Positions 20,617 to 53,117 of a stretch of 64,000 nucleotides of DNA are shown one piece after another. The notes beneath the pieces were generated by a model that saw only the letters and a list, made by a program, of their open reading frames with translations, was not told the origin of the DNA and did not search any database. A program made the translations under genes and the position numbers. Each line of letters starts with the position of its first letter. Position 1 is the first letter of the stretch. The stretch is from Candidatus Bathyarchaeota archaeon (GTDB taxonomy: Archaea > Thermoproteota > Bathyarchaeia > 40CM-2-53-6 > RBG-13-38-9), in assembly GCA_963807605.1 (NCBI GenBank), contig CAWECG010000001.1:320001-384000 (forward strand), written 5' to 3'.

Positions 20617-20964
20617 TTATCTGAGCAGCATCTTCTTCTCAGGATTCCTGGAAGCGTCTAGCTGTGCAGCTCTCAAATCAGCCTTAACAGGCATAGGCGG
20701 AAGAATAGACGAAAATGTTCCATCAAAGTTGAGGATGAAGACTGGTATCTTGTTCTTGGATAGCCAGTGGAATGCTTGAAGAGAGATGTAGCCACTGTGA
20801 TCATCAATAATTATGGAGTCGTAAGGAATCTTTCTAGGTCTGAATCTGTAAGTTGTCCCTTCCTTGAAGTCTTGTCTACCGTCAGATATCACAAGCTCTT
20901 ATCTAGGACGCATATTATCGACTTTGACTCTGATGCCGTATCCAGAAAGATGAAACGGGTTCAA
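20617..20964 (-). pseudogene. cas1: Cas1-solo / casposase-like gene, N-terminal third only, internal stop at codon 22
   Basis: MNPFHLSGYGIRVKV..*ELVISDG..IPYDSIIIDDHSGYISLQAFHWLSKNKIPVFILNFDG..LRAAQ matches the Cas1 N-terminal beta domain; GGGGAGGA RBS. Confidence 0.75.
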
Positions 20965-21195: not shown

Positions 21196-22332
21196 TCAGG
21201 TTGAAGAGATGGTTCTCTCAGCGTTTTCTTCTACGGGCGCTAGTCTGGCGCCTACACGGTCCTCGAGAGCGTCCAATAGCTTCTCGAATGCAGGCTTATT
21301 CTTTATGATTAACTCAATCATCTCGTCAGCATTCTGCAACTGCGGACCCAAGGAGCCTCCGGATACTATGTTCAGGTATTTCTCAGCGATGCGGTACTGC
21401 TTGAGCGCCTTCGCCTTGTCCATGTAGAACTTGTCATACCCATTCGGATCCGTTGTGTGGCCCATCCAATGCTCAACATACTCAAGATCTAATCCGTCGC
21501 CTTTACCCTGCAAGTGCAAAAGAGTCCGGGCGACGTCTCTGAACTCGTGAAGACCGTAACCGTACCTGTTGCCTTTTGAGCCCCCTCCAGTCTTGATGTA
21601 CTTGAGCTTCTCGAGAGTGCGCTTGTGTCTGGCCCAGACTCCATCCTCGGTAATAGGTCCATGTTTGCTCTTGATGATGGGTTCGCCCTTCTTTGGATAG
21701 CCACGGATCCGCTCGAAGTATTCACGCCATGCATCCAGAGCATCATGACCAATGAAGGTGTGGTACTGAACCTTGTTCAGATTCTTCTTTCGACCTGGAA
21801 ACTCCATCCGGAAAGGCTCATCAACTCCCTTGGTCTGGAGATGCTCAGCCAAGGCCCCACCATATCTCTCGTTGAAGTACAGAAACCTCGCAGTGTCCAG
21901 AATCCCCATCCAATAGGTCAAATAGACAGCTTTGAAATCCAGGTCTGCAGCATTCACTAGCTTTCTGATAATCTCAGGCGTGAGGTTGCCCTGCACACAC
22001 TCTTTCGTCGCCTTGATGACAGGTTTGACGTCAGCCGGCAAAGAAGCCCTCGAAGACTTGAAAAACATTACAACAACAGAGTAGTAGGTTCGCTTGCTGT
22101 TGTAGGTTCCCTCACGTAATCCAATAGCCTGCTGCAGATGATCAAGCAGTAGAAACTGATCTTTCTTCTCAGCATCAGCCTGGAACTCTACAAGCTGGGA
22201 GTAACTCAGGCCCTTGAACCGGTCAACACTCTGCAGACTCTCCCAAAACCACTTCAAAATATGGAAACTATTGCTAGACTGATTGTACCTGGACAGAAAC
22301 TTGACTACCGCAGCATCCTCTCTGAGATCCAA
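21196..22332 (-). CDS. Tyrosine recombinase/integrase
   Basis: GLHEFRD (HxxR), EHWMGH, GYDK catalytic Tyr; first catalytic Arg region atypical (MGILDTARF). Confidence 0.8.
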   Translation of the reverse strand: MDLREDAAVVKFLSRYNQSSNSFHILKWFWESLQSVDRFKGLSYSQLVEFQADAEKKDQFLLLDHLQQAIGLREGTYNSKRTYYSVVVMFFKSSRASLPADVKPVIKATKECVQGNLTPEIIRKLVNAADLDFKAVYLTYWMGILDTARFLYFNERYGGALAEHLQTKGVDEPFRMEFPGRKKNLNKVQYHTFIGHDALDAWREYFERIRGYPKKGEPIIKSKHGPITEDGVWARHKRTLEKLKYIKTGGGSKGNRYGYGLHEFRDVARTLLHLQGKGDGLDLEYVEHWMGHTTDPNGYDKFYMDKAKALKQYRIAEKYLNIVSGGSLGPQLQNADEMIELIIKNKPAFEKLLDALEDRVGARLAPVEENAERTISST

Positions 22333-29421: not shown

Positions 29422-29553
29422 CATCATCAAGCGCACGATGTCAGACCGATGTCATGACCGAATCTAGGCTTTAGTTCAACAATATCCTTGACCGCAATCA
29501 TAAGCTTGACACGGAAAAAAGGAAAAGGGATACTTCGCGCGCGCTAGCTCGTG

Positions 29554-30219: not shown

Positions 30220-30334
30220 CCTCTAACCCTTACAGTCAGCAGAATAGCGCGTGCTAGTTGAAAAGTTTACCCAACATCAATCACTGTCGGATCTCTTGGT
30301 GCGCGCGCTACAAAGAACCGAGCTTTCAGTCGTT

Positions 30335-30931: not shown

Positions 30932-31152
30932 CCAACCTCAGGCTTCGTAGCTTTTCTCGTTGAGGTTGAAACCGAAGATCCTGATTAAAAAAGTGTAAGC
31001 ATACTTTGCCTATTATGCATTGTTTCCTTGGGATTCCAGCTACAGACCAACGCGCGCTAGAGGTACTTCATGTTCTCTTTCAGGAATAGTTTGTCGGCTC
31101 TGTTCGGTTTGTAGCTGTTCGATGAGGTTGTTCGGCATCGGCGGATGTCTAT

Positions 31153-31736: not shown

Positions 31737-31902
31737 TTCCTGCTCAGTAGGCAATTGCGTTTTCCCTATAGTGATAGATAGCATGGCTAGAATATGTGCT
31801 TTGCCATATCGCTGGTTCGCCATACACACTTAAGTATGCCATACTCAGCTCCCTCTAACCTCTAAAGATAAACAGCTTTCCCCAACATTGGGGAAGGAAT
31901 TG

Positions 31903-32145
31903 TGTGTGCTCACCAAGGGACACCACCACACAGAAAAATGACGGTTCAAATTCGCCTGCTCGCACCAATGAAAACACATACAAGTGCTGAAACGAGAGTT
32001 CAATTTCCAGAGCTCGCACCAGTAGTACCACACACAAAGAAATTGTTAGAACGACGGTTCAAATTCAGGCGCTCGCACCATTGATGCCACACACACCACA
32101 TTTTTCGACCGAACGACGACGGCTCAAGTTCACTCGTCTACACCA
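31903..32145 (+). repeat. Tandem array of four tRNA-3'-end-like 27-bp repeats preceded by a core site
   Basis: Units at 31941, 31995, 32054, 32119: GGTTCAAAT-N12-ACCA, period 54-65 bp. Confidence 0.8.
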
Positions 32146-32201
32146 AAAATAAGACCGCAAGTCTCTTATTCGGAGCTCTCAACTTCATGACCGGTTGATC
32201 T

Positions 32202-32738
32202 GTGACCATGACCAATGTTCTAAATAATGTGGACCTTGACAAGATTGCGCAGACAGTTGCAGGCGGGAAGAAAGACAAAAGCACCCTTAGGAAGCCAGTA
32301 AAACTGCAAGGTGAATGGAACCTAGATCCCGCTAAAGGCTACCAGTTCAAAACCGAGCTGTCATACGAGAAGGGCAAACAGGTTATTGAGATAGATTCTC
32401 CTTCGTTTATGGGAGGATCTGGGAACAGACTCGGTCCAATGGCGTATTGCGTAGCAGGCGAAACGTCGTGTTTCATTGCCACGTTCGCAAGCGTTGCAGC
32501 AGAACAAGGCATTAAACTGACCAAACTGGCAGTCGATGCTCAATGCAGCATCAATTGGGCAAAATCATTCGATGTAGCAGATGAACCAATCAATGAGGGT
32601 ATTAGCTTTCAGATCGACGCGCAGAGTGATAATGCAGACAAAGAGCGACTTCAAGAGATAGTGAAGATGACAATGGAGCGATGTCCAGCAATGTACAGCA
32701 TGACCCATGTGATCAAGGTTGATGCCCGAATCAAGTGA
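32202..32738 (+). CDS. OsmC family protein
   Basis: DSPSFMGG..GP..YC...SC and terminal RCP. Confidence 0.85.
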   Translation: MTMTNVLNNVDLDKIAQTVAGGKKDKSTLRKPVKLQGEWNLDPAKGYQFKTELSYEKGKQVIEIDSPSFMGGSGNRLGPMAYCVAGETSCFIATFASVAAEQGIKLTKLAVDAQCSINWAKSFDVADEPINEGISFQIDAQSDNADKERLQEIVKMTMERCPAMYSMTHVIKVDARIK

Positions 32739-32841
32739 ATGATGTCGTTACTCTGCCACAGATCCCTCCTCTCGTCTTCAGTTTTTTTGGTTCTGTTATT
32801 CCCCACGCGGGTCGAGTGGTGCGCGCACTCACGAAACTATG

Positions 32842-32931
32842 CGGTTCAAGTTGGGTGGGCCGCACCGTTGAGAACACACACAAAATTGTAACCCAGCAGT
32901 TCAAATCCGGATGCTCTCACCAAGATGGCAC
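32842..32931 (+). repeat. Two further tandem tRNA-3'-like units
   Basis: CGGTTCAAGT-tgggtgggccgc-ACCG; AGTTCAAAT-ccggatgctctc-ACCAAGATGGCAC. Confidence 0.7.
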
Positions 32932-33125
32932 TGTAAGCGAAACGCACGGCTTCGGATGTCTTGCGTCCGAACATCACGTTAAGTTTTGAAAGGCCGAAGA
33001 AAAAGGAATCATTCTTGTCGATCAGGGTAAGATCGAGGCGGTCGGGGAGCGCCCCCGACAAGATCGAGCTCACTTCCAATCCGCCGAAACCCGCACCCAG
33101 GACAACCACGCGGAGCCCATCATGA
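32932..33125 (-). pseudogene. N-terminal fragment of FAD-dependent oxidoreductase (sulfide:quinone reductase-like)
   Basis: VVVLGAGFGGL..LTLIDKND.F.FG.SKL; similarity stops at the repeat unit. Confidence 0.75.
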
Positions 33126-33760
33126 TTTATCTCCTTTTCAGGCAAGATTCTCTTAACCGTCAGGTAAGTCTGGGTTATGTTGCAAATAAGGGCTTCCAAT
33201 AGCGGTCGATGGCAGTCACATCCCGCTTAACGAATAGTTCTGTCACCGCCTTTAGTACCAGATCTCTGTTGTTCATTTGGATTTCCTCTAGTTCAACTAT
33301 TCGGCATGTTCCTGCTGGGTCTTACTTTGGCTTGTAGGCGGGTGTGAAGATGGCGTGGGTTGGGTAGATTTCTACTTGGGGGTCCCCTTGGATCCCGATC
33401 TGTTTCATGCCTGACATAAGTCTGGTCTTGACGAAGTCGTCGTCGCTCACCATCTATAGCACACACGCATCCGAATCTTCTATAGACGTGAAACCTGAAA
33501 ATATTTAGAACCAAAGTGGATAATGCTGAGACGCGCGCGCGATGCGAAGAGGGCCTGATACGACGTAAGTGGTGGGACAATGATGCAATATAACGCACGC
33601 TCATAGTCATATCCTAGGTTACGCTAAATTTCGACTAGCACGCGAGTGACAGGATAGACCTGAGAAAGCGGCTGAGGCTCCAGCGCTCACTAAATTTAAA
33701 TCCAGAATAGTTGTATTATAAACACCTGCAACTGTAAGCCGCCTTAGGGGGATCCACAAA

Positions 33761-34120: not shown

Positions 34121-34662
34121 GTATGTTTTGCAGCGCGCGCTTTACGTAATTTCACATGATCTTACACAAAAAGACACAACTTTACACACATAACCCAAAG
34201 AATTTTTTTTGTATTCAAAATTGTGTGTTTTTATGCGTTTTCACATAAAACTTTCCTTACCAATACTGTGAAATTATGTGTCCAATGTTGTAAAGTTATG
34301 TGGTTTTGCGTATTGTATAGGTGCTGTCTTACTGTGCCATGGTCATTACCGTGGACAACATCGAGAAGACGCTATTAGTGCCATGACTCCCTGTACTGTG
34401 TGAGCGCGCGCGAAATATTTCCAATGTGTATAGAGACCCTAATGATCATGCTAGCTTATCCATAGAATGTGTGCCCTAATGGTTGCCATTCATCATTAGA
34501 AACTGATAGTTAGAGTGATTCACGCCTGAAGATCTGAGGCGAGCTTTAGCGAGCAATATTGTGTGTGCGCACCACTAGACACACCTTCCTTGCCCCAGAA
34601 ACTAATACCTGCCTTACGCTATGGCAACTGTTAGATATCCTTGAACCGCAGAACAGCAGTTT

Positions 34663-53034: not shown

Positions 53035-53117
53035 GCGAGCGTAGCGAGCCATTAGATTATGTTGTGTGTGTGTGTGTGTGTGTGTGTGTGCTCACCAAGG
53101 GACACGATGCGCGCGCG
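53035..53117 (+). repeat. Composite site: GCGAGCGTAGCGAGC + (TG)14 + GTGTGCTCACCAAGGGACAC + GCGCGCGCG
   Basis: Direct reading. Confidence 0.85.

Follow-up and report, generated by a model that had tools for sequence, protein, structure and literature searches.

A row of tRNA-end-like repeats in a Bathyarchaeota genome, probably a nest of casposon-like element ends

How does a row of tRNA-like repeats come to stand beside ordinary genes in an archaeal chromosome? In the window, the 64,000 nucleotides of a Candidatus Bathyarchaeota archaeon analyzed here, four 27-bp units occupy 31941-31967, 31995-32021, 32054-32080 and 32119-32145, separated by 27, 32 and 38 nt, and two further units follow downstream at about 32841-32867 and 32896-32922 (window positions, except where a contig or locus is named). 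A sequence-only reading had placed the four units, their gaps and the additional pair (about 32842-32922) correctly, and had proposed either empty attachment (att) sites or a proto-CRISPR-like array made by a casposase. By comparing sequences across the genome and its relatives, we arrive at the view that the array is probably a nest of ends of casposon-like elements, in which each decoy tRNA end served the next insertion and the far ends were later lost.

The division into 27-bp repeats and spacers describes sequences that do exist, but the meaningful register is a 17-nt leader, a 14-bp segment (14-mer) and a (CA)n tip. That is, the reported unit is the leader plus the first half of the 14-mer, and the reported spacer is the second half plus the tip and a linker. 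A fifth 14-mer (31909-31922) and a reversed one (32810-32823) had been missed. The features are listed below; a target-carrying end is an element end that holds a leader and a 14-mer, and f2 is another family of Bathyarchaeia.

31876-31908, minus strand: end of the left-hand element, with a hairpin (31876-31897) and a (CA)n tip; this end family recurs at about eight other ends in the genome
31909-31922, plus strand: the stack's outermost site, a resident-type 14-mer (CTCACC class)
31923-31960, plus strand: target-carrying end 1, with tip, A-rich linker and leader (31944-31960)
31961-31974, plus strand: 14-mer 1 (CGCACC class); the genome has no closing copy of it, and a site on viral contig L106 differs at one position
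31975-32014, plus strand: target-carrying end 2, leader 31998-32014
32015-32028, plus strand: 14-mer 2, unique in its own genome, identical to the f2 sites L064:7924, L077:2352 and L118:151
32029-32073, plus strand: target-carrying end 3, leader 32057-32073
32074-32087, plus strand: 14-mer 3, differing at one position from an f2 site type (L064:5721)
32088-32138, plus strand: target-carrying end 4, leader decayed; f2-type linker, 78% to L094 and at best 66% in its own genome
32139-32152, plus strand: innermost 14-mer, with positions +1 and +2 decayed (by the motif requirements in PMC6614799 and PMC6977970) and no tip behind
32202-32738, plus strand: OsmC-family gene (cargo)
32810-32823, minus strand: reversed 14-mer, CGCACC class
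32824-32874, plus strand: target-carrying end whose tip has decayed; leader at 32844-32860, followed by 14-mer 32861-32874 (CGCACC class)
32875-32923, plus strand: resident-type target-carrying end (leader 32899-32915), with 8 nt of its 14-mer present before the fusion to the SQR gene
32924-33403, minus strand: 5' piece of an SQR-like oxidoreductase gene with its upstream DNA
33436-33466, plus strand: junction of a (CGA)n tip, 14-mer 33446-33459 and a (CA)n tip
34560-34581, plus strand: tip and 14-mer 34568-34581, CGCACC class
20617-20964, minus strand: remnant of a casposase N terminus, covering residues 1-113 with one stop; 87% to the full-length C3 copy

Since the innermost 14-mer has lost C at +1 and has no tip behind it, we read it as probably an unused, dead target. 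At the other end, the SQR-like gene carries a frameshift just after its start codon and is cut at 32924, where it is fused to the last 14-mer 8 nt into that segment; gene and resident site have 7 bases in common at this point. Elsewhere in the neighborhood, a (GC)n palindrome recurs at many gene borders (29535-29550, 30245-30310, 31051-31060, 33533-33543, 34134-34141 and 34405-34413), one of these borders being the left-hand limit of the cassette that adjoins the array. AC-rich repeats with a period of about 10 bp and inverted arms lie between two tipped junctions (34160-34312), and the segment 31595-31753, upstream of the membrane-protein gene to the left of the array, has an 85% identical second copy at G000 C3:444598-444749.

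The site so delimited can be compared with the targets of two casposases for which insertion with duplication of the 14-mer has been demonstrated (PMC6614799, PMC6977970). The Aciduliprofundum boonei enzyme needs TCAAATC 8 bp upstream and C at +1, the far half of the 14-mer being dispensable (PMC6614799); the Methanosarcina mazei enzyme needs bases -17 to -12 together with CGCA at the start of the 14-bp duplication (PMC6977970). Here, TCAAATY occupies -15 to -9, the 14-mer starts 8 bp after it and C stands at +1, as the former enzyme requires, while GTTCAA at -17 to -12 and CGCA at +1 to +4 correspond to the requirement of the latter. The conserved columns of the site are those required positions; -8 to -5 and +8 to +13 are variable. 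Because the T-loop-like motif of the units (GTTCAAAT) and the first bases of the 14-mer match the published mutagenesis, the site has the geometry of a casposase target. Furthermore, about 17 ends beginning GGGGATAT adjoin the 14-bp segment exactly, on either side of it, and at most other junctions a tip of (CA)n, (CAC)n or (CGA)n meets the segment at these positions, +1 and +14. The target geometry, the tips and ends at the 14-mer and the genome's own casposase thus support the earlier suggestion that a casposase was the likely maker.

The descent of the units from a tRNA 3' end, also suggested from the letters alone, is borne out as well. Host tRNA-Gly and tRNA-Leu genes end CGCACCA, alignment to the host tRNAs finds similar 3' ends (15-19 of 24 positions match) and the units have precisely the tRNA spacing between T loop and CCA (7+5+7+1+3). 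Two leader positions, the G at -3 (98% conserved) and the G at -6, agree with tRNA-Gly and not with tRNA-Leu, and the latter appears the less likely ancestor. In one relative, G007, a site stands 200 bp behind a tRNA-Gly gene. Among the tRNA ends listed for the present genome, none has a tip or casposon end at +14, and neither ARAGORN nor Rfam found a tRNA gene or RNA family in the window.

The array had been taken as a local feature; it turns out to be one cluster of a genome-wide family. A profile built from the unit finds 73 non-tRNA copies of the site in the 2.65-Mb genome and no match above 18 bits in two shuffled genomes. Of 105 genomes of the order, 38 contain the site and 30 the casposase, largely in the same genera, and both are absent from all 22 genomes of genus g9; related genomes are not independent, so we treat this co-occurrence as supporting rather than statistical. 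The array locus was not found in 15 family members, which have single units only. The site with tips is also present on three viral contigs (L106:9226-9312, L107:13738-13773 and L108:876-957), records in which no casposase was found; on L106 it stands before a restriction-modification-like gene pair. Viruses may carry cassettes between hosts. Two contigs binned as a Nitrospiraceae bacterium (L151:758-2749) and a betaproteobacterium (L202:401-438) hold it too, which may reflect binning error or cross-domain transfer. As to form, very long (CA)n tips, up to about 120 bp, occur at L013:3700-3822 (G000 C3:39700-39822) and at 53064-53090 of the window, and may be true expansions or long-read errors. 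Minimal inverted junctions, in which two facing 14-mers enclose a single 8-9-bp (CGA)n tip, are seen at G000 C3:49787-49823, C3:386181-386217 and C4:721491, and simple insertion does not explain them.

The genome encodes one full-length casposase, a stand-alone Cas1 of 402 aa on contig C3 (L011:15496-16704) with a C-terminal HTH, whose closest solved structure is the M. mazei casposase (PDB 6OPM, E 6e-72, residues 4-397); it is family-2-like. Its gene lies inside a 9-kb element with (CGA)n tips, bounded by identical direct 14-mers (junctions 93 and 94). This copy has Pro for the catalytic His (codon 236), a residue that is His in all relatives surveyed, and may be dead or misread. The cas1-solo remnant previously noticed 11 kb from the array (20617-20964, minus strand) is rightly positioned, but it is a broken fragment that no site adjoins or brackets. 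An integrase-like gene (21196-22332, minus strand) lies just upstream of it, and target sites surround neither. No PolB of either family was found in the casposase element: the search gave no PF03175 match, the two PF00136 genes of the genome are both far from the casposase, and the casposase elements in L011 and L074 contain no ORF of PolB length; given this and the short tips, we call the elements casposon-like and not classical casposons. In the place of PolB, casposase elements have a common small divergent gene cluster (L011:12829-14496, L074:9206-10752 and L034:6882-8875, all on the minus strand), whose genes look ATPase-like and primase-like by eye and which fall in no Pfam family and match unnamed PHROGs weakly at best. 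No reverse transcriptase, a conceivable maker of the tips, was found in the genome, and no protein-primed PolB either. Family-2 casposons have terminal inverted repeats of at least 25 bp that finish in TCCCC-3'; about 17 ends of this type (GGGGATAT) exist here but are mostly unpaired, and short (CA)n or (CGA)n tips close off the casposase elements examined.

The proposed course of events is as follows. A stand-alone Cas1 integrase, the casposase, would recognize the T-loop-like motif and the first bases of the 14-bp target and insert a piece of DNA there, duplicating the 14-mer, as the shared geometry suggests. In this lineage, roughly one element end in four holds a decoy of a tRNA 3' end, most like that of tRNA-Gly, 40-50 bp inside the tip. 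Insertion would then bring a fresh target, on which the next element could land, as matching 14-mers in relatives indicate. Four rounds, each with the target-carrying end first, would yield the row 31909-32152, oldest on the left and with the decayed, unused target last. Later, excision between non-matching sites, or else rearrangement, would have removed or displaced the far ends with their closing 14-mers.

The evidence for nesting comes from the relatives. Among 267 distinct leader sites in their loci (chosen for holding sites, at most 20 kb each, and from kin that are not independent), 14 are followed downstream, on the same strand, by a tip and an identical closing 14-mer, and none has such a copy upstream; shuffles gave a mean of 1.6 and a maximum of 7. 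The 14 inserts measure 0.7 to 9.4 kb and often contain one to three ordinary genes. Seven of them are flagged with a target-carrying end, its new leader and 14-mer lying some 50 bp inside, and L095 looks alike by eye; one target-carrying insert encodes a casposase (L074:5154-14559), and in L097 the inner target has in turn been used and duplicated. Moreover, target-carrying ends make up 77 of 311 tipped ends (25%) on the far side of the 14-mer and, inverted, 45 of 163 (28%) on the near side. Such near-equal frequencies are expected of a mobile end, whereas local duplication would place these ends on the far side only. The supposed spacers are, in fact, a conserved class of element ends.

Stack lengths numbered 129, 27 and 5, as against 131, 24.5 and 4.6 under a geometric law (p about 0.19), by which about one run of four is expected among 161; runs of three exist in six of the relatives' loci, and L118 has a cut-off fourth end. 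For the array itself, no closing copies of its own 14-mers were found in the genome, where closing copies are at chance level (2 of 49), so its history is drawn from the relatives, about 95% of whose sites lack a closing copy inside the stretch read. The earlier phrase, scars of serial integration and deletion, holds in broad terms, through the nested closing 14-mers of relatives, and as a history of this particular row we infer it. Identical 14-mers on opposite strands (9 of 267 in the relatives) are not accounted for by simple nesting and suggest inversions, and the 3' end of the tips is G, as opposed to the C residues in TCCCC needed by the A. boonei enzyme. Excision of the M. mazei casposon leaves a single empty target (PMC10359463); by extension, excision between non-matching sites would leave such a row of ends.

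Where did the inner part of the row come from? Base +2 of the 14-mer is T in 120 of 125 entries of this genome's junction list and G in 172 of 174 at the loci of families f2 and f10; nevertheless, between 31961 and 34581 there are six G-type 14-mers. The cargo tells the same story. The OsmC gene has a close relative in only one of 104 other genomes, G081 (f2), at 84% nucleotide identity and with no sites around it, and the SQR piece has relatives in five genomes, all f2, reaching 90% nucleotide identity over 480 bp with G078 (f2), non-coding DNA included. Together, the flanking OsmC and SQR sequences are 84-95% identical to f2 genomes at the nucleotide level, compared with 66-68% for core genes. 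Cargo identity so far above that of core genes, along with the f2-type 14-mer and linker, makes import the simplest reading; the CGCACC-type part, with the OsmC gene and the SQR piece, was most likely brought in from the other Bathyarchaeia family. G007 and G004, of the present genome's own family, also use G-type 14-mers, and the G-type is probably the older state. Since it may be older, the direction of import is one that we infer.

Four other explanations deserve weighing against the nest of element ends. The units could be empty att sites of a tyrosine integrase that acts at tRNA 3' ends, the enzyme being the product of the integrase gene at 21196-22332 (minus strand; PHROG 1, E 2e-6, no Pfam match). 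Their tRNA-like sequence, the start of some islands near tRNA-Gly genes and the use of one tRNA-Leu target by both integrative elements and casposons of M. mazei fit this idea, which was among those first put forward. However, att copies match the host tRNA end, whereas these agree with it at only 15-19 of 24 positions and have lost the T stem; junctions at +1 and +14 against transposon-type ends indicate target duplication, not crossover; and no site is near the integrase gene, which is 10 kb from the array. We regard att sites as improbable, although an att copy could be the distant ancestor of the decoy.

Slightly less probable still is local tandem duplication or slippage of a REP-like repeat of 55-65 bp, with no enzyme acting on the array. 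Tips are microsatellites of varying length, as slippage would have it, and an exact 70-bp tandem duplication does exist in the relative L021. Yet the whole units are pairwise only 57-75% alike, no closer among themselves than to units elsewhere; this speaks against the simple duplication of a 55-65-bp sequence that had been named as the outcome able to overturn the tRNA-based account. For four of the five, the match to units in other genomes is as good as that to units in their own, or better, and the same ends are found inverted on the other side of 14-mers.

The proto-CRISPR idea, in which a casposase adds 40-50-bp pieces serially at a single leader, every addition copies the repeat, and the pieces are stored in the array or expressed from it, is largely refuted, and we give it a very low probability. 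Unit and gap sizes are CRISPR-like, casposase chemistry is that of spacer insertion, and the relatives L070 and L091 have polarized stacks with identical 14-mers around kb-sized inserts. Against this, adjacent 14-mers in a row differ like random pairs, only 1 of 36 tandem pairs being identical, and stack lengths are geometric with no long arrays. The spacers belong to the conserved class of element ends and have no exact match in viral contigs and none in phage records. Two isolated 21-nt metagenome matches to spacers look like chance and have no other feature of the site. Finally, no Cas2 was found in the genome (94% complete), nor a CRISPR-type Cas1, the aligned Cas1 matches being of the casposase type.

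An RNA role, with unit transcripts cleaved in the manner of tRNA 3' ends to give small functional RNAs or to process the OsmC message, is hardly credible: the T-loop-to-CCA spacing is preserved in all units, but this is the casposase's own requirement, there is no 5' acceptor strand or Rfam match, and the loss of T-stem pairing (2.38 versus 2.42 with shuffled partners, 144 sites) with an array fold z-score of +0.57, no better than shuffles, makes a DNA decoy likelier than an RNA mimic and leaves the suggested tRNA-like processing without backing.

Having argued for nested element ends, we would note a wider and more tentative reading, namely integron-like gene capture run by a casposase, whereby chromosomal genes would be given (GT)n-type tips, inserted at decoys and passed between host families, the cassettes themselves spreading decoys. 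The OsmC gene without sites in G081, some 60 tipped ends alike in the tip only, and 1-kb single-gene inserts with clean 14-bp duplications are consistent with it, but we think it rather unlikely. If true, it would present a living intermediate, a Cas1 enzyme without strict end recognition, a stage called for in models of how CRISPR arose. CRISPR spacer acquisition has been proposed to descend from casposons, with the target site as the presumed origin of repeats and leader (PMC6452270, PMC6977970). The present lineage would offer a natural case in which the target has left the tRNA gene, has been multiplied by elements whose ends have little common sequence, and forms short arrays; the array illustrates how rows of repeats may arise without being a memory. 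The shared site also points to gene exchange among archaeal families. In a search of mostly freely available papers, we found no literature on casposons in Bathyarchaeia or on self-carried targets.

Among known systems, the closest is the target of the family-2 casposon of A. boonei at tRNA-Pro (PMC5137440, PMC6614799), which resembles the present site in TCAAATY 8 bp before the duplicated segment, C at +1, a 14-bp duplication with a tolerant far half and GGGGATA-type ends beside some sites. It differs in that A. boonei uses one real tRNA gene, whereas here about 70 decoys lie outside tRNA genes, inside element ends, the majority of ends are tipped with (CA)n, (CAC)n or (CGA)n, and the host tRNA genes examined are free of insertions. 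The M. mazei casposase (PDB 6OPM; PMC6977970, PMC4779613, PMC10359463) shares closest structure, C-terminal HTH and the CGCA that starts the 14-bp duplication. In that species, too, elements insert in tandem, use intergenic targets and leave solo ends; there, however, the elements encode PolB, have 31-59-bp inverted repeats and form tandem copies at one target, which is not so here, and these papers are not known to describe ends that carry their own target, nested stacks or small enzyme-less gene cassettes. CRISPR arrays and mini-arrays (PMC6452270; viral mini-arrays of Bathyarchaeia, PMC10848311) have in common with the row Cas1-family chemistry, a leader beside the duplicated segment and a similar period. 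Unlike them, it has non-identical repeats, spacers that are not foreign and a leader for every unit, with no Cas2 found in the genome. Integrons and tRNA-gene islands are rows of one- to three-gene cassettes between short sites, exchanged between distant hosts. Cassettes of one to three genes, short sites and exchange across hosts are seen here as well, the difference from integrons being a Cas1-type transposase that makes target duplications in place of a tyrosine recombinase, and no attC-like hairpin. Taken together, the array appears to work like a family-2 casposon target, and to be neither a classical casposon system nor a CRISPR array.
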